Origin: Pusillimonas sp.
Lineage (GTDB): Bacteria > Pseudomonadota > Gammaproteobacteria > Burkholderiales > Burkholderiaceae_B
Assembly (NCBI RefSeq): GCF_044464525.1
Contig: NZ_JBIQLE010000002.1
Coordinates: 121,691-145,690 of the forward strand
Length of the DNA: 24,000 bases
Direction of reading: 5' to 3'
Shown here in pieces: positions 14,248-24,000 of this stretch. Below the pieces are notes generated by a model. The model had not been told where the DNA came from, made no database searches, and saw only the letters and a list, made by a program, of their open reading frames with translations. A program made the translations under genes and the position numbers. Every line of letters starts with the position of its first letter. Within the stretch, counting starts at the first letter, position 1.

Positions 14248-16590
14248 ATGACTAAAAAACTTGATCGGGACTCCGGCCCCTATGCCGGCGTGCATCATGA
14301 AAAATCCAGCCCGTACGAAGGCTCTTCAGGGGGGTGGGGTTCTGTGCGCGCCCTGGCCGACATCTTTGCAAGAACTGGCGCCGCTACTGCGATGGCCACG
14401 ATTCTGCCCAGACAGAACAAGCCGGGCGGAGTCGCATGCGTAAGCTGTGCGTGGGCCAAGCCGGCCGATCCGCACACTTTTGAGTTTTGCGAGAATGGCG
14501 CCAAAGCGACGGCGTGGGAGGCCACTTCTCACAAGATAGACGCCTCGTTTTTCGCCGACCATCCAGTATCAGAGCTGCGCCGCTGGAACGATCACCAGCT
14601 TGAAAACAAGGGCCGCCTTGTGGAACCCATGGCATGGGATGAAGACTCCGGCTGCTACCAGCCCATTCCGTGGGATCAGGCCTTCGCCGAAATCGGGGCT
14701 CAATTGGACAGCATGGAGCCCGACTCGGTGGTTTTCTATACCTCGGGGCGCGCCTCGCTGGAGGCCGCCTACATGTACCAGTTGCTAGCGCGCACCTATG
14801 GAACGAACAACCTGCCGGACAGCTCCAACATGTGTCACGAGTCGACGTCCGTCGGCTTAAAAGACGCCATCGGGCTTGGCGTGGGCACTGTACGTCTAGA
14901 GGACTTTCGCCAGACTGAGGCCATCTTCTTTTTCGGCCAGAATGTCGGAAGCAACAGCCCTCGAATGCTGCACGAGCTTCAGGCGGCAAGCGAGCGGGGC
15001 GTTCCCATCGTCACGTTCAACCCGCTTCGCGAAAGGGGGTTGGAACGCTTTCGCAATCCGCAACGTCCCAGTCAGATGCTGGGCGCCGAAAGCACACCAG
15101 TCAGTTCACACTATCACCAAGTACGACTTGGCGGTGACATTGCCGCTGTGGCGGGAATCTGCAAAGCACTGCTTGAACGCCATGAGGCCCAATCGGGCGA
15201 CGCTTCAGCCGCATCCATTCTGGACATGGACTTCATTGACCGCCATACCTCTGGTTTCGAAGGCTTCGCCCAGTATTTACGCGACGCGCCATGGCCCGAC
15301 ATCGAACGGCACAGTGGCTTGACACGCACCGCGCTTGAGGACGCCGCTCGCATCTACGAAGCAGCCGACGGGGTGTTGCTGGTGTACGGCATGGGGCTTA
15401 CCCAGCACTTGCGCGGCGTGGACAACGTGCGCATGTTGGTGAATCTAGCCCTGATGCGAGGCAATATCGGCAAGCCCGGCGCCGGCCTCTGTCCGGTCCG
15501 AGGCCACTCGAATGTGCAGGGCCAACGCAGTGTAGGCATCACGGAAAAACCCGAACTGGCTCCGCTGGACCGGCTCGAGGAGCTCTATGCCTTCGAAGCT
15601 CCGCGCAAGAAGGGGCGGGACACAATCGGCACGTGCGAGGGCGTAATGGACGGTAGTGTGCGTGGCTTCGTGGCCTTGGGCGGCAACTTCGTGCGAGCCG
15701 CGCCGGATACCGAAGCGCTCGAGGGCGCGTGGTCGTCGCTCGACCTCACGGTTCATATCACCACAACCCTCAATCGCAGTCATTTGTATCCTGGCAAGGC
15801 GTCGTATCTGCTGCCTTGCCTGGGCCGCACGGAAGTAGACGAGCAGCTCAACGTGGCACAGGCGGTATCCGTAGAAGACAGTACGGCTTGCGTGCATGGT
15901 TCGCTCGGACGCAAGCCGCCGGCCGACCTGCGCCAGATGTCCGAGCCCGCCGTCATTGCCGGCATTGCCCTGGCCACCCCCAGGCTTGAAAGGGCCAGCG
16001 TGCCGTGGATTGAATGGTCGCAGGATTATTCCCAGGTTCGAGACGCCATCGAAGCAACTTATCCGCAACGATTTTCGCGCTTCAATGAACGATTATGGGA
16101 GCCCGGCGGCTTTCCTCTGACGAACGCTCCGCGTGAACGCATTTGGCATACCGACACCGGCAAGGCCCAGTTCGCAGCACCTGCCGACTTGACGGCCTTG
16201 CGACGCGAGCGGCTCGACGATGAAGACGTCATGCAGCTCATGACGCTGCGTAGCAACGATCAATTCAATACCACCATCTACGGTTACGAGGACCGGTTCC
16301 GTGGCGTCTCAGGTACCCGGCAGATCGTGTTCATGAACGAGGCCGACATGCAGCGGCTGGGCTTGGCCGAGGGTGACCGCATTACCCTGCACACTGCGTT
16401 GGAAGAGAACGTGGAACGGCGCGTGGCCGGGTTGAAGGTCGTTCCCTACGACATTCCGCAGGGGTGTTGCGCCGCTTATTACCCGGAATGCAATGTATTG
16501 CTTCCGGTCTGGCACCATGCTGAAATAAGTCGGGTGCCTGCCGCAAAGTCCATCCCTGTGCAAGTGTCGCATCACACCGAGAGTCTATAA
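14248..16590 (+). CDS. FdhF/YdeP-family molybdopterin oxidoreductase (formate-dehydrogenase-like, substrate unknown)
   Basis: 780 aa. The N-terminal hallmark is NKPGGVACVSCAWAKPADPHTFEFCENGAKATAWE. MopB-type domains run throughout (GRASLEAAYMYQLLAR, SNMCHESTSVGL, GMGLTQH, CPVRGHSNVQGQR). The C-terminal molydopterin dinucleotide-binding beta-barrel reads LMTLRSNDQFNTTIY...GDRITL. There is no in-frame TGA, so it is not a selenoprotein. Confidence 0.85.
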   Translation: MTKKLDRDSGPYAGVHHEKSSPYEGSSGGWGSVRALADIFARTGAATAMATILPRQNKPGGVACVSCAWAKPADPHTFEFCENGAKATAWEATSHKIDASFFADHPVSELRRWNDHQLENKGRLVEPMAWDEDSGCYQPIPWDQAFAEIGAQLDSMEPDSVVFYTSGRASLEAAYMYQLLARTYGTNNLPDSSNMCHESTSVGLKDAIGLGVGTVRLEDFRQTEAIFFFGQNVGSNSPRMLHELQAASERGVPIVTFNPLRERGLERFRNPQRPSQMLGAESTPVSSHYHQVRLGGDIAAVAGICKALLERHEAQSGDASAASILDMDFIDRHTSGFEGFAQYLRDAPWPDIERHSGLTRTALEDAARIYEAADGVLLVYGMGLTQHLRGVDNVRMLVNLALMRGNIGKPGAGLCPVRGHSNVQGQRSVGITEKPELAPLDRLEELYAFEAPRKKGRDTIGTCEGVMDGSVRGFVALGGNFVRAAPDTEALEGAWSSLDLTVHITTTLNRSHLYPGKASYLLPCLGRTEVDEQLNVAQAVSVEDSTACVHGSLGRKPPADLRQMSEPAVIAGIALATPRLERASVPWIEWSQDYSQVRDAIEATYPQRFSRFNERLWEPGGFPLTNAPRERIWHTDTGKAQFAAPADLTALRRERLDDEDVMQLMTLRSNDQFNTTIYGYEDRFRGVSGTRQIVFMNEADMQRLGLAEGDRITLHTALEENVERRVAGLKVVPYDIPQGCCAAYYPECNVLLPVWHHAEISRVPAAKSIPVQVSHHTESL

Positions 16591-16747
16591 ACATACGAAA
16601 TCCGTCCAGTGCGTTTCGTTGCGTTGCAGCATACAGGTCGACAAAAAAACTTATAGGGCAAATGGCCTAAATTCTGTTACGATCGGCGGCAACTCGAACG
16701 GCGACTTGTAAGTTGTGCCGCGAAGCCGCCACGCACTGGAGACAATC

Positions 16748-18949
16748 TTGAAGAATACAGTTCCAGCCCTCATGGCGGCCGGCTTGGCCGCGTTCGTGCT
16801 TGCCGGTTGTGGAAGCGGAGGAGGATCGGGCGACGACACCGCGCAAGGCCCCAACATTCTGTTCGTCATCATGGACGATGTCGGCATCGACCAGATGAAG
16901 GTCTTCGGCTATGGCGGCGCCGTCGGCCCCGACCTGCCCAATATCGACGCCGTCGCCCATGCGGGCGTGCGCTTTCGCAATACATGGTCCATGCCCGAGT
17001 GCTCTCCGGGCCGCGCCGCCTTCTTCACTGGCCGCTACCCACATCGCACCGGCATCCATCAGGCCATCGGCCCTCTGGATCTGGCCAATTCACAATTGTC
17101 TCCCTACGACGCCACCACGCCCAAGCTGCTTAAGCAGGCCGGCTACGAAAGCGCCATGTTCGGCAAGTTCCACCTGGCCGGCCCCGAGAATAACGAGGCC
17201 GAGAACGCCACGCCCGCCGTATTGGGATGGGATCATTTCTATGGCTGGGTGGGCGGTTTACCTGGTTCAATCGACAGCACGGCTGGTGGCGTCGACGCAA
17301 GCGGGCCATATATGTGCGGCTTCGTGCCGGGGGTCAACCTTCCTCCTGGGGAAAACATAGGAGCGCAAAAAGGCGCTTGCTACCAGCCTGATGGCGCTTG
17401 CCAGGTAATGGAGCGCACGTCGCCGGATCAAGACCCGGCCGGATTGCAATGCCTTGCGTCAGGAGGCGTCTTGGTCCCTGGTGAACAAACCTGCGGCACA
17501 ATGCCGACGAATCTCACCTTCGACAAGCTCAATGGCTACTATGTGTCGCCGCTGGTCATCATCAACAACGGCGACGTCGAAGAAGTGCCGCTTACCGATG
17601 AACGCGCACGCGGCTATCGCACCACCATCGAAACCGATGCCGCCGTCGAATGGATCAATTCGCGGCCGGCGAACAAGCCCTGGATGGCCACGGTCAGCTA
17701 CAGCGCCGTACACACGCCATGGCAGCAGCCGCCCCGAAACCTTCTTGCGGGCCATGTGGGGCCGCTGGATCATCTTAGCTGCACAGATGGAGTTGGCGTG
17801 CGTGTCATTCAAGACCGCATGACCGAGGCCCTGGATACTGAATTCGGCCGCCTGCTGGTAGAAACCGGCCTTGCGTCGTACAACGCTGACGGCAGCCTCA
17901 ATTACGACCCCAGCGCCTCGAACACCGTCATCGTCATCGTCGGCGACAATGGTTCGCTGGCCACGGCGGTCAAGCTGCCTTTCGATTTCACGCGCTCCAA
18001 GGGTTCGGCCTACCAGACCGGCGTCTGGGATCCGCTGATCATCGCCGGGCCGCAAGTGGTGCAGCCCGACCGCGAAGTCGACCATATGGTCAACATGGTC
18101 GACGTGTTCCAGTTCTTCGGCGAACTGGCCGGCATCGACGTTCATAAAGAGGTGCCGCGCACCGTCGATTCGGTGGGCATCCTGCCTTACCTGAAGGACC
18201 CGGGGCAGGGCAGCCTGCGCACCATCAACTTCACCATGGGCGGCATGAACATACAGGCTGACGGCGGAAGAAACGGTCCTTGCATCCTGGCCGAGTCCGC
18301 ATGCACGGTTATCCCCACATCCAAGAGCGTCTGCGAAGACAACCTGGGTGTGTGGTGGGGCAAAGACTACAACGAGGGCGAGGGGGTGATACCCACCAAT
18401 CCCCCCGGAGCCGGCTATGAAACCTGCGCTGATGTAAACAAGGCCATGTTCGAGACGCACGGGACGATGTACGGGCTGGTGCCCGAGTCCTCCGTGGCCA
18501 TCCGCGACGACACTTACAAGCTGGTACGCAACAGCAGCAGGGACTACGACCCCGCTACCAAAGACTTCGTGACGGAAACGGTTGAAGAACTATTCGTAAT
18601 CGACCAGGCCAAGCCTGTCCCCAAACTCGACCGTGAAGGCGAGAGCCTCCTGGTGGGGCCTGGAAAAGCGAAGGATGCAGAGTCGCAAGAAGCCTACAAC
18701 TACCTGCGCGTCATGCTGGACGACATGCTGGCCTCCAACCCCGAGTGCCCGGGCGACGGCAATATGGATGGCGTCGTCGACGCTGAAGACCTGACGCAAT
18801 GGCGGCGCATCGCTCACGCCTGGGGCGAATCCAGCGTCTACGATTTCGTCACCGGCGAACATCGCGACGGCAAGACCAACCACCTTGACGAAGCGGTCAT
18901 CCTGGCCAAACTGAACACGACCTGCGAACGCACCTACAGCATCTATTGA
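16748..18949 (+). CDS. Sulfatase-like (alkaline-phosphatase superfamily, Cys/FGly type) lipoprotein with Cys-rich inserts and a C-terminal dockerin-like module, paralog 1
   Basis: Catalytic motifs are intact: VIMDDVG, PECSPGRAAFFTGRYP (C-x-P-x-R, Cys codon 17000-17002), GKFHLAG, AVHTPW, VGDNG, SKGSAYQTG. The lipobox is VLAGC followed by GSGGGSG. The start was set to TTG 16748 (GGAGA 6 nt upstream) by homology with paralog 2. The ORF-track GTG at 16715 is less likely. Confidence 0.85.
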   Translation: MKNTVPALMAAGLAAFVLAGCGSGGGSGDDTAQGPNILFVIMDDVGIDQMKVFGYGGAVGPDLPNIDAVAHAGVRFRNTWSMPECSPGRAAFFTGRYPHRTGIHQAIGPLDLANSQLSPYDATTPKLLKQAGYESAMFGKFHLAGPENNEAENATPAVLGWDHFYGWVGGLPGSIDSTAGGVDASGPYMCGFVPGVNLPPGENIGAQKGACYQPDGACQVMERTSPDQDPAGLQCLASGGVLVPGEQTCGTMPTNLTFDKLNGYYVSPLVIINNGDVEEVPLTDERARGYRTTIETDAAVEWINSRPANKPWMATVSYSAVHTPWQQPPRNLLAGHVGPLDHLSCTDGVGVRVIQDRMTEALDTEFGRLLVETGLASYNADGSLNYDPSASNTVIVIVGDNGSLATAVKLPFDFTRSKGSAYQTGVWDPLIIAGPQVVQPDREVDHMVNMVDVFQFFGELAGIDVHKEVPRTVDSVGILPYLKDPGQGSLRTINFTMGGMNIQADGGRNGPCILAESACTVIPTSKSVCEDNLGVWWGKDYNEGEGVIPTNPPGAGYETCADVNKAMFETHGTMYGLVPESSVAIRDDTYKLVRNSSRDYDPATKDFVTETVEELFVIDQAKPVPKLDREGESLLVGPGKAKDAESQEAYNYLRVMLDDMLASNPECPGDGNMDGVVDAEDLTQWRRIAHAWGESSVYDFVTGEHRDGKTNHLDEAVILAKLNTTCERTYSIY

Positions 18950-18961
18950 TGCCCACCCTCA

Positions 18962-18999
18962 AGGCCCGCCCGCCCCGGCGGGCCTGCCGCTCCTTTTGC
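18962..18999 (+). terminator. Putative intrinsic terminator/attenuating hairpin between the tandem paralogs
   Basis: aggcccgcc-cgcccc-ggcgggcct forms a 9-bp GC stem (18962-18985). A delayed, interrupted T tract follows (ccTTTTgcTTc). The T tract is imperfect, so read-through is plausible. Confidence 0.45.
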
Positions 19000-19069
19000 T
19001 TCGGCGCGGTTCCGCATTAATTGTTAGTGGCTTCTTGATTCAACGGGGCGAACACCTAAGGACGCAACA

Positions 19070-21238
19070 TTGAACAAGACCGCGACCACCTTGCTTGCCG
19101 CCACCTGCTGCGCACTGGCGCTTGCCGCATGCAGCAGCGGGGGAAGCTCCGACGATACGGCGTCAGGAACCCCCAACATCCTCTTCGTCATCATGGACGA
19201 CGTCGGCATAGACCAGATGAAGGCCTTTGGTTATGGCGGCGACGATCCTCCGCACATGCCCAACATCGACATGGTGGCGGAAGCGGGGCTGCGCTTTCGC
19301 AATACCTGGTCCATGCCCGAGTGCTCACCGGCACGCGCGGGCTTTTTCGTGGGACGCTATCCATTTCGAACCCACATCTACCAGGCCATTGGCGAGAACG
19401 ACCTGGCCAATGCCCAGCTTTCTCCTTACGAAACCGCCATCCCGCAATTGCTTAAGCAGCGCGGCTATGAAAACGGCCTGTTCGGCAAGTTTCACCTGGC
19501 GGGGCCCGACAACATCGAGCAGACAAACACCATGCCGGCCGTGCTGGGCTGGGACCGCTTCTACGGCTGGATCGAGGGCTTGCCAGAATCCATCGACACC
19601 TCGGCCGGAGGTGTGGCTTCGGAAGGCGTGCATATGTGCGGTTTCGTTCCCGGCAGCCGTGCTGCGGGCGGGGCCGATGCGGGCGCCTGCTACCAGCCTG
19701 ATCTTAGCTGCGCGTACATCGAGCGAGAGTCGCTAGACCACGACGCGGCCGGCCTGCAGTGCCTCGATTCCGGCGGAATTTTCGTGCCGAACGCTCAATG
19801 CAGCGACACAGCGCCCACAGGCCTGAACTTCAAGCAGACCAATGCGCATTACGTATCGCCCTTGGTGATTATCGAGGCAGGCCAGGTCGAGGACGTACCG
19901 CTCGACGACAGCCGCTCGCGCGGTTTCCGCGCCCGCATCGAAACCAACGCCGCCATCGAATGGATCAATTCCCGCCCGGCGCAAAAGCCGTGGATGGCCA
20001 CGCTTAGCTTCAGTTCGGCCCACACGCCCTGGCAACAGCCGCCCCAAAGCATGCTTCCAGGCGGGAAACCGGCCCTGGACACGCTGGACTGCAGCGAAAC
20101 AGCACACGGCCGCCGGATACAGAATCGCATGACCGAAGCCCTGGACAGCGAGTTTGGCCGGCTGCTGGTCGAAACCGGCATGGCCACCCGCAACCGCGAC
20201 GGCAGCCTGAACTACGATCCCAAGGCAAGCAACACCGTCATCGTCATCGTGGGCGATAACGGCACGCTGGCTTCGGCGGTCAAAAAACCTTTCGTCAGCG
20301 GCCAGGCCAAGGGCACCGCCTACCAGACAGGCGTATGGGACCCGCTGATCGTCGCCGGGCCGCAAGTGGTCGAACCTGGACGAGAAATCGACCACATGGT
20401 CAACGTCGTCGATCTGTTCCAGTTTTTCGGCGAACTGGCCGGCATCGACGTGCACCAGGAAGTGCCTCGCACGCTGGATTCCGTGGGCATCCTGCCTTAC
20501 CTGGGCGACCCCCGGCAGCCCAGCTTGCGCAGCATCAACTTTGCCATGGCCAACCTCAATGAACAGGCTAATGGCGTCAAGAACAGCCCTTGCGTCGTCG
20601 AAGGAACCACGTGCACGCAGATTCCGATGAACAAAGAGATCTGTCAGGATACACAAGGCGTATGGTGGGGCCCCGGGTACGATGACCACAGCGTGATCGA
20701 TAACGGCGGCGCGGGATACGGAAGCTGCGCCGAAGTCAACCAGGCGCTGCATGTAAAGGGCGAGCCGCTGTTGAATATTCTTGCCGAAACTTCGGTGGCG
20801 ATACGAAACGTCAACCACAAGCTGGTACGCAATACGAGCCAGCTATATGACTCGGATAACGACAGTATTCGAACCGAAACAGTCGATGAGTTATTCGAAA
20901 TCGACCAGGCCGCGCCTGTGCCGTTGCTGGACACAAAAGATCGGAATCTGTTGCCGCCCTCAAGCCCCGAAATAGAGGCCATCTACAAAGACCTGAAACA
21001 AAAGCTTGAACGTATGTTGGCCTCTGACCCGCATTGTCCCGGCGACGGCAACATCGACGGCGTCGTCGACGGCAACGACCTGGAAAACTGGGCGCGCATC
21101 GCCAACGAATGGGGCAAATCCAGCGTCTATGACGCCATCATCGACGACGTGCGCGACGGCGTGACCAATGCTGCCGACGGCACTGTCATCCAGAACAACC
21201 TTGGCAAAACCTGCGAAAAAACCTATGCGCTTTACTAA
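19070..21238 (+). CDS. Sulfatase-like (Cys/FGly type) lipoprotein with Cys-rich inserts and a C-terminal dockerin-like module, paralog 2
   Basis: TTG start with AAGGA 7 nt upstream. The lipobox is ALAAC followed by SSGGSS. Catalytic motifs are present: VIMDDVG, PECSPARAGFFVGRYP (Cys codon 19322-19324), GKFHLAG, SAHTPW, VGDNG, AKGTAYQTG. It is collinear with paralog 1 over its full length. Confidence 0.85.
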   Translation: MNKTATTLLAATCCALALAACSSGGSSDDTASGTPNILFVIMDDVGIDQMKAFGYGGDDPPHMPNIDMVAEAGLRFRNTWSMPECSPARAGFFVGRYPFRTHIYQAIGENDLANAQLSPYETAIPQLLKQRGYENGLFGKFHLAGPDNIEQTNTMPAVLGWDRFYGWIEGLPESIDTSAGGVASEGVHMCGFVPGSRAAGGADAGACYQPDLSCAYIERESLDHDAAGLQCLDSGGIFVPNAQCSDTAPTGLNFKQTNAHYVSPLVIIEAGQVEDVPLDDSRSRGFRARIETNAAIEWINSRPAQKPWMATLSFSSAHTPWQQPPQSMLPGGKPALDTLDCSETAHGRRIQNRMTEALDSEFGRLLVETGMATRNRDGSLNYDPKASNTVIVIVGDNGTLASAVKKPFVSGQAKGTAYQTGVWDPLIVAGPQVVEPGREIDHMVNVVDLFQFFGELAGIDVHQEVPRTLDSVGILPYLGDPRQPSLRSINFAMANLNEQANGVKNSPCVVEGTTCTQIPMNKEICQDTQGVWWGPGYDDHSVIDNGGAGYGSCAEVNQALHVKGEPLLNILAETSVAIRNVNHKLVRNTSQLYDSDNDSIRTETVDELFEIDQAAPVPLLDTKDRNLLPPSSPEIEAIYKDLKQKLERMLASDPHCPGDGNIDGVVDGNDLENWARIANEWGKSSVYDAIIDDVRDGVTNAADGTVIQNNLGKTCEKTYALY

Positions 21239-21239
21239 G

Positions 21240-22388
21240 ATGTCACGAAGAAGATGGTTGGTGCTGGGCGGCGCAACGGTCGGCGCCGCCGCAGTGGCGG
21301 CGGCGCTGGCCTGGAATTCCCCTGCGCCAAAGGCGCCGGCCGAACCCATCGTCGTCCTGGGCGACGGCGTCTCTGCTCCTGAAGGCATGGCCTGGGTACC
21401 GCCCGGCACGTTTCAAATGGGAAGCGAAAGCAAGTTGGCCCAGCTCAACGAAAAACCCGCTCATTCAGTCAGGGTAGGGGGGTTCTGGATGGACGTCGCC
21501 CACGTCACCAACGACGAGTTTGCTGAATTCGTGCGCCAGACCGGCTATGTAACAACCGCTGAGCAAAAGCCTGATTGGGAAACCATACGCGTTCAATTGC
21601 CGCCTGGCATTCCCAAACCGCCCGACGACGTCCTGGTGCCGGGCGCCATGGTATTCGCGGGCACCAATGGGCCCGTCGATCTGCGGGATTATTCGCAATG
21701 GTGGCGCTACGTGCCCGGCGCCGACTGGCGTCATCCCCAAGGGCCGGGCAGCTCCATCGAAGACAAGGGCGATCACCCCGTCGTGCAGGTCAGCTACGAC
21801 GACGCGCTGGCTTATGCCAAATGGGCCGGCAAACGCCTGCCCACCGAGGCCGAGTGGGAATATGCCGCGCGCGGCGGGCTCGAGCAGGCCACCTTTATAT
21901 GGGGTGACGAACTTATGCCCGACGGCCGGCAAATGGCAAACTATTGGGATACCGAACAGCAAGGCACGTTTCCGGTCGTCAGCCCCAAGGCGGGCGGCGC
22001 CGAGGGCACCGTACCGGCCCGCACCTTTCTACCGAATGGCTACGGCTTGTACGACATGACCGGCAACGCCTGGCAATGGGTGGCCGACTGGTACGGCGCC
22101 GATTATTTCGCCAAGCAGGCCACCGCCAAAAAGACCATCGACAACCCCAAGGGCCCCGAAAAATCATTCGACCCCTCAGACCCCGGCGCGCCCGCCAACG
22201 CGCCCAAGCGGGTGATACGCGGAGGGTCTTTCCTGTGCAACGAAAGCTATTGCCTGTCGTACCGGCCAAGCGCGCGGCGCGGCTCTGATCCCTACAGCCC
22301 CATGTCGCATGTTGGATTCCGCTTGGTAAAGGACGCACCGGCGCCCACGGCGGCGCAGGTGGCGACGCATACAGCCAAGACACCTTGA
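21240..22388 (+). CDS. Formylglycine-generating enzyme (FGE/SUMF1 family sulfatase-modifying factor) with an N-terminal RRR plus hydrophobic segment
   Basis: FGE-sulfatase domain motifs are present: MAWVPPGTFQMGS, HPVVQVSYDDALAYAKWAGKRLPTEAEWEYAARGG, YGLYDMTGNAWQWVADWY. The catalytic Cys pair is in RGGSFLCNESYCLSYRPSARRG. ATG 21240 lies 1 nt after the TAA of paralog 2. ATG 21225 is an alternative. The ORF-track start at 21168 overlaps paralog 2 by 71 nt. Confidence 0.9.
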   Translation: MSRRRWLVLGGATVGAAAVAAALAWNSPAPKAPAEPIVVLGDGVSAPEGMAWVPPGTFQMGSESKLAQLNEKPAHSVRVGGFWMDVAHVTNDEFAEFVRQTGYVTTAEQKPDWETIRVQLPPGIPKPPDDVLVPGAMVFAGTNGPVDLRDYSQWWRYVPGADWRHPQGPGSSIEDKGDHPVVQVSYDDALAYAKWAGKRLPTEAEWEYAARGGLEQATFIWGDELMPDGRQMANYWDTEQQGTFPVVSPKAGGAEGTVPARTFLPNGYGLYDMTGNAWQWVADWYGADYFAKQATAKKTIDNPKGPEKSFDPSDPGAPANAPKRVIRGGSFLCNESYCLSYRPSARRGSDPYSPMSHVGFRLVKDAPAPTAAQVATHTAKTP

Positions 22389-22401
22389 AACCGCTTCAAT
22401 G

Positions 22402-22435
22402 AAAAACGCCGATCGCTGGATCGGCGTTTTTTGTT
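22402..22435. terminator. Bidirectional rho-independent terminator between convergent genes
   Basis: AACGCCGATC-gctg-GATCGGCGTT forms a 10-bp stem (22405-22428). It is flanked by an A5 run on the left and TTTTTTG on the right, so each strand reads stem plus T-run. Confidence 0.8.
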
Positions 22436-22479
22436 TCAGCTGAAGATGCCTTAAGGAATGAGCCCGAGAGCGGGCGAGC

Positions 22480-24000
22480 CTAAGAAGCCGGCCGGCAATC
22501 TCTGCGCATGTTCTGGTTGATGATGGCCAGGTCGGCCTCGTTCGTCAGGCCGTCGTGGTTGAAGTCGTACCAGCTTGAATGGCCGCCGTTATGGGTGCTG
22601 AAATACTTCCAGTTTTCGACATCTTGCTCGTCGACCACCAGGTCGAGGTTGCCGTCGCCGGGGCAATCGATATGGCTGGCAAGCAGGGTATCCATTTCGG
22701 TTGTCAGCGCCTGATAGTTTTGCTGCATTTCAGGCGTCATGTGATGAGGCGGCTGCAGCAAGTCCAGATTCTCGCGGTCCAGAAGCGGCAATGGGACGTT
22801 CTGATTAATGGCATAGAACTCTTCGCTGGATTCGACTTCGTTGCTGGCGCAGTTCAGGCGTTCGAGCTGCACCAATTTGAAGGATTCATTGCGCACGGCT
22901 CGTTGGGAGTTGGGCAAGAGATCGACGGGGTCATCGCCTTGGTTGACAAGGTACTCATTGACGGCACAGCATGATTCCAAGCCTTCGGCGCCCGCGACGC
23001 CACCTGGGCCATACCAGACGCCGCTCTGGTCTGCGCATACCCCCGCTTGTGGAAAGATCTGAACGCACATATTGAACGCCGGAATCACGCAAGGTGAAGG
23101 GGGGTCGGCTTTGACCGACGCGATATTGGTGCCCATTTCGGTGTAATTGGTGCTGCGGATGCTTGTTTGAGATGGTTCAGTAAGGTAGGCGAGCACCGGC
23201 TGAGCGTCGACCTGCCGCGTTTCGGGCAAGGCCTGCGCAAGATCGATGCCGGCCACTTCGCTGAACAAGGCGTACATATCGGCGGAATTGACCATGTGGG
23301 GCACTTCACGGCCGGGCTCTTTGACCATGGGGCCGGCCACTACCAACGGCACCCAGACCCCGGTCTGGTAGGGCGAACCTTTGGCTCGCGTCAGGCTGAA
23401 GGGGAATTTGACGCTAGGGCCGTATGTGCCGTTGTCGGCCATTATGACAACCACGGTGTTGGTCTCTTGTGGCCGGTAATCAAGCGCGCCGTCTGCGCGA
23501 TACTTGGCAAGGCCGGTTTCGACCATCAGGCGCCCGATTTCCGTATCCAGCGCTTCAATCATGTGGGTGGTCAGCTCGCGCTGCGCCAGCAACGAGCCCT
23601 CGTTCTCGGCATCGTTTGTACACGTATAGGCGTCGATCTGGGCAGCGGCGTCGGGCAGCAATGAAACAGGCGGCGGCTGCAAGGGCGTATGGATGGCCGA
23701 ATACCCTACGCTGGCCATCCAAGGCTTATCGGAAGGCTGCTGCGTGATCCAGTCGACAGCCAGGTCGGTTTCCATGATAGTGCGGTAGCCGCGACCCCGA
23801 GCGTGTTCCGGGGGGAACACCTGAACCGTGCCGTCCGCATGGTTGATGACAAGCTCGCTGGTGTAATAACCATTTTGTTCGGTGAAATCCAGGTAGCTGG
23901 GCGCCGAGGCGTGGCACGACTGGCCCGGGTCGAACAAGCCGCCGCCCGCCACGCAGGCCAGGCCGGGAATGCTCTCTTCCTGGGTAGATATGTCGGTGCA
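22480..24000 (-). CDS. Sulfatase-like protein, paralog 3 (more diverged); N-terminal part lies beyond the window edge
   Basis: The frame stays open through 24000; the GTG at 23952 is internal. It is collinear with residues from about 240 to the end of paralogs 1 and 2: LACVAGGGLFDPGQSC...NGYYTSELVI, KPWMASVGYSAIHTPLQPPP, VVVIMADNG, AKGSPYQTGVW, HMVNSADMYALFSEVAGID, and the same C-terminal DCPGDGNLD...DFNHDGLTNEADL module. Confidence 0.8.
   Translation of the reverse strand, partial: CTDISTQEESIPGLACVAGGGLFDPGQSCHASAPSYLDFTEQNGYYTSELVINHADGTVQVFPPEHARGRGYRTIMETDLAVDWITQQPSDKPWMASVGYSAIHTPLQPPPVSLLPDAAAQIDAYTCTNDAENEGSLLAQRELTTHMIEALDTEIGRLMVETGLAKYRADGALDYRPQETNTVVVIMADNGTYGPSVKFPFSLTRAKGSPYQTGVWVPLVVAGPMVKEPGREVPHMVNSADMYALFSEVAGIDLAQALPETRQVDAQPVLAYLTEPSQTSIRSTNYTEMGTNIASVKADPPSPCVIPAFNMCVQIFPQAGVCADQSGVWYGPGGVAGAEGLESCCAVNEYLVNQGDDPVDLLPNSQRAVRNESFKLVQLERLNCASNEVESSEEFYAINQNVPLPLLDRENLDLLQPPHHMTPEMQQNYQALTTEMDTLLASHIDCPGDGNLDLVVDEQDVENWKYFSTHNGGHSSWYDFNHDGLTNEADLAIINQNMRRDCRPAS

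Follow-up and report, generated by a model that had tools for sequence, protein, structure and literature searches.

A stretch of 24,000 nucleotides of the Pusillimonas sp. genome (the window; G000:C2:121691-145690 in a 3.69-Mb Alcaligenaceae genome, 98.7% complete) encodes three paralogous sulfatase-like proteins (P1, P2, and P3) together with a formylglycine-generating enzyme (FGE). Described systems close to this locus are of three kinds. The first comprises the formylglycine-dependent sulfatases of the S1 family, such as human arylsulfatase A (1AUK/1E3C), P. aeruginosa AtsA (1HDH), and the S1_15, S1_16, and S1_19 enzymes. The second comprises the aerobic copper-dependent FGEs (human SUMF1 and the enzymes of T. 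curvata, S. coelicolor, and M. tuberculosis), of which the characterized bacterial representatives are of the cytosolic type. The third comprises the lipoproteins exported by a type II secretion system (T2SS), with PulA of Klebsiella and InvL of A. baumannii as examples. T2SS-exported lipoproteins need GspN, and they need a P2'-P8' stretch after the lipidated cysteine that is rich in Gly/Ser ('GGG') or Asn/Asp (Roberts, Gura, & Sandkvist, mBio 2025, PMC12802150). According to the same study, PulA is dependent on PulN, a T2SS cargo of B. pseudomallei carries a mixed Gly/Asp motif, GGG and GDD are Lol-avoidance signals in Pseudomonas, and an arylsulfatase lipoprotein (RE180_12660) is among the putative cargo listed for A. 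baumannii.

Comparison of our locus with these systems suggests, with somewhat better than even confidence, that P1-P3 are surface-displayed sulfatases that are matured in the periplasm, carried by a GspN-containing T2SS and act on extracellular sulfate esters; the topology of the FGE, the route, the location, and the substrate class are what we infer here. S1 sulfatases, copper FGEs, and T2SS lipoprotein cargo are known kinds of protein. The long architecture of the sulfatases, the building of FGE and sulfatase genes into a gsp locus, the exported FGE, and a proline-less maturation motif appear to be undescribed in the literature searched. In our literature search, T2SS, sulfatase, and FGE were not brought together in any paper, and neither the sulfatases of Pusillimonas nor the T2SS cargo of Alcaligenaceae were the subject of one; the GspN study cited above was the only relevant one.

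The sulfatases and their maturase

The first-pass annotation of the window, which was made from the letters of the sequence, had proposed three formylglycine-type sulfatases with an FGE and had suggested a Pfam search. The open reading frames were found as described there, and all three paralogs scored above the cut-off of PF00884 (Sulfatase, 25 bits), with 109 bits for P1, 106 bits for P2, and 26.7 bits for the P3 fragment in the window. When full-length P3 was compared with this profile in the genome search, 78.5 bits were obtained. The FGE matched PF03781 (FGE-sulfatase) with 259 bits (6e-77), which is also above the cut-off. It had further been stated that P1 and P2 keep the catalytic motifs of sulfatases, and an alignment of 88 family members agrees with this, since D43, D44, C85, R89, K140, H142, H318, D396, N397, and K414 (P2 numbering) are invariant. 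Eleven cysteines are also invariant in this alignment, the catalytic one and ten further residues. The C-x-P-x-R maturation motif of the known S1 sulfatases is shared by P1 (CSPGR) and P2 (CSPAR), whereas P3 differs in carrying CTTTR. P1-P3 are predicted to be formylglycine-dependent S1 sulfatases that are made as lipoprotein precursors.

An AlphaFold2 model of P2 (pLDDT 91.7, pTM 0.92) was compared with the PDB by Foldseek. Here, we found ASA, ARSB, AtsA, and bacterial S1 carbohydrate sulfatases as top matches (E-values 1e-21 to 1e-18), with target-normalised TM-scores mostly between 0.54 and 0.72 and an identity of only 14-18%. The modelled fold is the alkaline-phosphatase-like two-subdomain fold of the S1 sulfatase type. 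Sequence and profile searches of the PDB gave separate matches for the N-terminal and the C-terminal half of the catalytic domain, and the best solved relatives (S1_15, S1_16, S1_19, S1_7) cover parts of the protein only, again at 14-18% identity. P1-P3 resemble the known S1 enzymes in fold and in metal-binding and catalytic residues but differ from the solved ones in size and in their lipoprotein nature. The surplus of roughly 200 residues over classical arylsulfatases noticed in the first-pass annotation was confirmed (722-733 aa compared with 450-560 aa for solved S1 sulfatases). Part of it is a cysteine-containing insertion of about 120 aa that separates the GKxH motif from the HTP motif (roughly residues 170-285); the remainder falls to an elaborated C-terminal subdomain and to a final module of about 65 residues resembling a dockerin-like double EF-hand. 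All three C-termini aligned with nearly the full dockerin type I profile (PF00404), at sub-threshold scores of 11.6-16.4 bits (cut-off 22.9).

At 90% identity the family falls into more than 1,500 clusters, none of which bears a name other than 'sulfatase-like hydrolase/transferase', and the closest named relatives of the proteins of this locus come from Pusillimonas noertemannii, Verticiella, Candidimonas, and Parapusillimonas. In the phylogenetic tree P1 plus P2 and P3 fall into two deep clades with 100% support each; within the former, P1 and P2 represent separate well-supported lineages, both of which are found in other genera too. Many relatives, but not the present genome, also encode members of a fourth clade, for instance at L021:13307-15649 and G042:C1:1381470-1383770; these proteins have about 780-800 aa, share 41-44% identity with P2, and likewise end in a dockerin-like C-terminus.

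The FGE aligned with solved FGEs at E-values from 1e-61 to 1e-74, among them those of T. curvata (6s07, 1.3e-74) and human (1y1e, 4e-67). The Cu(I)-binding catalytic cysteine pair (C-x4-C) is kept, with FLCNESYC aligned to FLCHESYC of the T. curvata enzyme. Judged by this pair and by the catalytic domain, both of which it shares with the aerobic copper FGEs, the protein is a bona fide copper-type enzyme. It differs from the characterized bacterial FGEs in an N-terminal extension of about 46 residues, in which RRR is followed by a hydrophobic segment (about 20 residues) and then by a Pro-rich linker. Such an extension implies an extracytoplasmic catalytic domain, closer to the ER-lumenal eukaryotic enzyme. 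A further difference from the known copper FGEs is the embedding of the gene in a T2SS locus. The N-terminus runs from charged to hydrophobic in all FGE relatives examined, and the twin arginine is not kept in them; a Tat signal is therefore less probable than a Sec signal peptide or a signal anchor. The positive-inside rule probably places the catalytic domain on the periplasmic side, so that maturation would be periplasmic.

The FGE had been called dedicated to the three paralogs, which is not strictly the case, as the genome holds three more Cys-type sulfatases. Two Cys-type sulfatases, with CVPSR and CGPSR as motifs (G000:C18:23982-25118 and C1:124526-125671), lack a signal peptide and are apparently cytoplasmic. 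One other gene with an FGE fold is present in the genome, and it looks EgtB-like.

The departure of P3 lies in its N-terminal third, which is located outside the window and carries C-T-T-T-R (C near residue 88), L-D-D, and G-K-M-H in place of the canonical motifs. All other catalytic residues are intact. Thus, the earlier description of P3 as a formylglycine-type copy stands as far as the PF00884 match and these residues are concerned but not for the CxPxR motif. FGE has been described as acting on CxPxR and the anaerobic maturase anSME as acting on SxPxR or CxAxR (PMC2459300); exchange of the proline for leucine in the motif of human IDS is pathogenic (PMC10185571). Within the P3 clade, 117 of 120 proteins keep C-[ST]-P-[ST]-R, CTTTR was only found in P3 and one 88%-identical relative, and a search of the 98.7%-complete genome gave no anSME gene. 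These data would be compatible with a P3 that is no longer formylglycine-modified and that works through a Cys nucleophile, serves in binding, or is failing slowly, with P1 and P2 doing the catalysis. We consider this scenario somewhat unlikely, because the remaining catalytic residues are intact and because dN/dS between the two CTTTR genes is 0.105 (at dS 0.65), which argues that the variant is kept under purifying selection.

Linkage to a type II secretion system and the sorting motif

According to the first-pass annotation there is no transporter near the sulfatase genes and no clue to their substrate. The former is true within the window, but a complete T2SS begins 211 nt beyond the P3 start codon, where gspO is transcribed divergently from P3. 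The latter overlooked this neighbor, although it still holds that the substrate class can only be inferred. After gspO, the cluster continues with gspC, G, H, I, J, K, L, M, a GspN homologue, D, E, and F, and all genes of the cluster, gspO included, except the GspN homologue were identified by Pfam. The gene at the gspN position has no direct match to PF01203 but is 41% identical (2e-61) to a gene of strain T7-7 that does match this profile. The cluster holds the only Gsp-type secretin of the genome.

We counted family members and gspD in 121 Alcaligenaceae genomes. The sulfatase family is present in 33 of them (20 of 51 genera) and gspD in 67. The family is accompanied by gspD in every one of the 33 carriers and is missing from all 54 gspD-less genomes. 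For six genera, the numbers of genomes with sulfatase and with gspD are equal and lie below the genus total; as the carriers are a subset of the gspD genomes, both are present or absent in the same genomes there. Gene neighborhood conservation, which the first-pass annotation had suggested examining, was observed in 16 of the 20 carrier genera: an orthologous FGE is located no more than 15 kb from gspD, or shares a small contig with gspC and gspO, in 25 of the 31 other carriers. According to the gene maps, some genomes carry the module at the gspO end of the cluster and others at its gspF end, and in three genomes the FGE stays beside the T2SS while the sulfatases are located elsewhere. Pusillimonas sp. 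T7-7 (CP002663.1) shows the layout of our locus: gspG-gspF are followed by a P3-type gene and then by an FGE and a P2-type gene on the opposite strand. T2SS linkage is likewise present on the metagenomic contig of the closest P3 relative. Besides T7-7, the locus also occurs in P. noertemannii DSM 10065, and both strains are cultivable and non-pathogenic.

An alignment-based scan of the genomes of 185,000 species yielded 79 named loci. A sulfatase gene directly followed by an FGE gene is the common core (about 62 of 79), and T2SS genes were found within 10 kb in 28 loci, including a Gallionella MAG outside the Alcaligenaceae. T2SS-positive genomes that lack the sulfatase also lack the orthologous FGE. 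The sulfatase and FGE genes are therefore an accessory module attached to the T2SS locus rather than a part of the T2SS core, and the distribution over the 121 genomes bears out the first impression of an accessory block.

A second conserved genomic context was observed in 17 of the 79 loci and in Alloalcanivorax, where a multi-TM histidine kinase of about 610 aa flanks the module together with a GerE-type response regulator (L021:7300-9806, L016:7341-9853, plus 15 further, listed as L036, L038, L043-45, L048, L066, L073-75, L082, L084, L087-89, L091, L096). This context was found in Pigmentiphaga, some Bordetella, Comamonadaceae, Xanthomonadales, and Alloalcanivorax. T2SS genes are absent there, but B. 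petrii has both. The flanking kinases of Pigmentiphaga and Alloalcanivorax are 37% identical; their sensor domain has no Pfam match and hence gives no clue to a ligand, and no homologue of the kinase was found in the present genome. The Alloalcanivorax locus contains, between the kinase and a second sulfatase gene, a protein of 762 aa that bears both multihaem cytochrome-like motifs and TPR repeats (L016:5050-7338).

A line of evidence that is independent of synteny comes from the lipoprotein signals. The lipoboxes and Gly/Ser linkers reported for P1 and P2 in the first-pass annotation were confirmed, and P3 also has a lipobox followed by a G/S/N/D stretch (Table 1); each lipobox is preceded by a hydrophobic segment. 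The outer-membrane localization that had been predicted by the enterobacterial +2 rule is unsafe, since the stretch behind the cysteine corresponds to the T2SS/GspN sorting motif, and GGG and GDD are reported to avoid Lol in Pseudomonas (PMC12802150). G, S, N, or D occupy seven of the seven positions P2'-P8' in P1 and P2 and six of seven in P3. When 149 lipoprotein candidates, obtained by a regular-expression screen of the genome, were scored in the same way, a bimodal distribution was obtained: 135 scored 0-4, one scored 5, and 13 scored 6-7. The high scorers are almost all large hydrolases and comprise four sulfatases (P1-P3 and a fourth one on contig C3), three TAP-like alpha/beta hydrolases, two subtilases, PhoX, an S9 peptidase, a VWA protein, and a DUF1254/1214 protein. 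Together, these lipoproteins constitute a candidate T2SS surface-lipoprotein secretome. The ten further motif-bearing lipoproteins are encoded in G000 at C9:84067-87713, C18:32203-36857, C20:6351-8267, C1:135957-138275, C44:348-2129, C6:86562-87725, C5:1526-3001, and C3:126-1946. Among 197 lipobox-bearing members of the sulfatase family, 159 score at least 5, and Asp is the commonest +2 residue.

P1-P3 thus resemble PulA, InvL, and other A. baumannii cargo in their lipobox, their G/S- or N/D-rich P2'-P8' stretch, the GspN-containing T2SS, and their hydrolytic nature. They differ from these systems in that the gsp locus itself contains the genes for the cargo and for a maturation enzyme; the link seen here is a genomic one.

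Gene layout and upstream element

The features of the locus are listed in Table 1.

Table 1. Position of the sulfatase and FGE genes and of neighboring sequence elements in the window
Feature	Position	Strand	Remarks
CTGTTACGAT, core of the conserved upstream element	16674..16683	+	weaker than consensus; 65 nt before P1 start
P1, S1 sulfatase lipoprotein (predicted), 733 aa	16748..18949	+	TTG start; lipobox LAGC, then C-GSGGGSG
G+C-rich hairpin with T-rich tail, 3' of P1	18968..18990	+	probable terminator
P2, S1 sulfatase lipoprotein (predicted), 722 aa	19070..21238	+	TTG start; lipobox LAAC, then C-SSGGSSD
FGE, copper-type formylglycine-generating enzyme (predicted), 382 aa	21240..22388	+	PF03781; ATG 1 nt past P2 stop
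Hairpin between convergent FGE and P3	22414..22426	+	terminator-like
P3, C-terminal 506 aa in the window	22480..24000	-	lipobox LASC, then C-GSGGNDV; C-T-T-T-R

For P1, a second possible start is the GTG at 16715. The spacing between P2 and FGE was found as previously described, and the FGE is translationally coupled to P2; an in-frame upstream ATG at 21168 received no support as FGE start from the N-termini of relatives. The full P3 gene encodes 731 aa (G000:C2:144170-146365) and would extend to window position 24675. The hairpins 3' of P1 and 3' of FGE suggest P1 alone, P2 plus FGE, and P3 converging on them as likely transcription units. With the exception of these two hairpins, a scan for sigma-70 promoters and terminators performed no better than on shuffled sequences, and an Rfam search of positions 16000-24000 gave no match.

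P1 and P2 are 62% identical, and P3 shares 46-47% identity with either of them. At the DNA level, four blocks of 180-300 nt (17997-18296 vs. 20307-20606 plus three others) show 71-78% identity between P1 and P2; they occur at constant offsets of 2289-2322 nt and include short near-identical runs. This pattern fits either strong constraint or occasional gene conversion. Gene decay, which the first-pass annotation had named as a possibility, was rejected, since the reading frames of P1-P3 and FGE are all intact and dN/dS against orthologues is 0.05-0.25 (0.10-0.25 for P1). By this measure, the sulfatase and FGE genes are under purifying selection.

The element upstream of P1 belongs to a family with the consensus AAAATCTGTTACGATTTT and 6-nt inverted arms (AAAATC-N6-GATTTT). 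Of the 110 sulfatase gene starts in the 79 loci, 19 are preceded at a distance of 60-230 nt by a AAAATCTGTTACGATTTT site with no more than one mismatch, compared with about 0.3 expected. These sites belong to P1-type and P3-type genes, and none was found in the loci with the two-component system. The only good copy in the present genome is located upstream of P3 (L007:2520-2533, corresponding to G000:C2:146519-146532, minus strand). The element might serve as an operator or else as an extended -10 promoter (TGnTACGAT).

Proposed function and alternatives

In the mechanism that we propose, the sulfatases would cross the inner membrane unfolded via Sec and would be lipidated on the lipobox cysteine. 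The periplasm-facing copper FGE would then oxidize the cysteine of C-S-P-x-R to formylglycine on the chains emerging from Sec, and the proteins would fold with Ca2+ and about five disulfides. The adjacent GspN-containing T2SS would move the enzymes across the outer membrane, so that they would be lipid-anchored on the surface or on vesicles like PulA and InvL. There, they would hydrolyze extracellular sulfate esters on substrates that are too large or too varied for import. The lineages of the three paralogs are old, and their deep separation argues for specificities that are non-redundant and probably different. No glycoside hydrolase, TonB receptor, or sulfate-ester transporter was found beside the sulfatase genes, and this favors release of sulfate for nutrient scavenging, in parallel to the putative surface lipoproteins with the same sorting motif (PhoX, proteases, and esterases).

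Several observations weigh against this proposal. T2SS adjacency is largely seen within one bacterial family, and shared ancestry inflates the counts. Family members of Pigmentiphaga, Comamonadaceae, Xanthomonadales, Alloalcanivorax, Methylococcus, and Halopseudomonas show no T2SS adjacency. Orthologous T2SSs occur without sulfatases in 34 of 67 genomes, so that the machine is not dedicated to the sulfatases. The topology of the FGE is read solely from sequence features, and a periplasmic FGE would leave the two apparently cytoplasmic Cys-type sulfatases without a maturase. Finally, classical sulfate-starvation proteins are poor in Cys and Met, whereas the sulfatases contain more of both residues than the median protein. 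Because of this composition and because no nutrient-responsive site was recognized, we hold the scavenging role with moderate confidence only.

Some of these observations would also be explained if P1-P3 were ordinary Lol-sorted lipoproteins that sit on the periplasmic face of the outer or inner membrane and act on imported small sulfate esters, their position next to the T2SS reflecting inherited synteny or a joint island. The +2 rule reading agrees with this explanation, as do the concentration of adjacency in one family, the many members elsewhere without a T2SS neighbor and the sulfatase-free T2SSs. However, the adjacency survives moves of the module to either gsp end, and the FGE remains beside the T2SS even where the sulfatase genes are located elsewhere. 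Moreover, the family is absent from all gspD-less genomes, the paralogs carry a published T2SS sorting motif that is rare and enzyme-specific in this genome, and there is no sulfate-ester uptake system nearby. Considering both sides, we regard Lol sorting as unlikely.

It is very unlikely that the formylglycine nucleophile is used on phosphate or phosphonate esters (PMH/PehA-like) so that the proteins would join the PhoX lipoprotein in phosphorus scavenging: sulfatases and PMHs have similar active sites, NCBIfam PehA gave weak matches, a PhoD gene lies near the Pigmentiphaga locus, and PhoX bears the same sorting motif, but the PehA scores were 38 and 25 bits compared with a cut-off of 900, the top sequence and fold matches were all sulfatases with no PMH structure in the top 60 or top 50, and a Pho-box search upstream of P1, P2, P3/gspO, and gspC/gspG gave poor matches only, which is uninformative since the region upstream of the genome's own phoX matched no better.

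We therefore retain export of the sulfatases by the T2SS after periplasmic maturation as our preferred explanation. A more far-reaching version, which we advance tentatively and with less than even confidence, is that Alcaligenaceae and some other Betaproteobacteria possess a self-contained 'mature and display' module, in which an exported FGE, display by a GspN-containing T2SS, and an operator of its own (AAAATC-N6-GATTTT) are combined, and that in the present lineage the FGE would accept C-T-T-T-R as well.

Extracellular 'arylsulfatase' activity is a standard measure of sulfur cycling in soil and sediment, and to our knowledge only few of the bacterial enzymes and export routes behind this activity are known. 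The locus is a compact candidate in this respect, since it brings together an enzyme family, its maturase, a probable export machine, a sorting signal, and a candidate operator. It also provides a natural test bed for the proposed GspN route of lipoprotein secretion and can address the site of FGE action in bacteria. The CTTTR variant could show whether FGE tolerates a proline-less motif, which bears on aldehyde-tag technology. If the 'mature and display' proposal is true, the locus would represent the first bacterial case of post-translocational formylglycine formation coupled to a secretion system, akin to the situation in the eukaryotic ER, and would constitute a natural extension of the substrate range of FGE.

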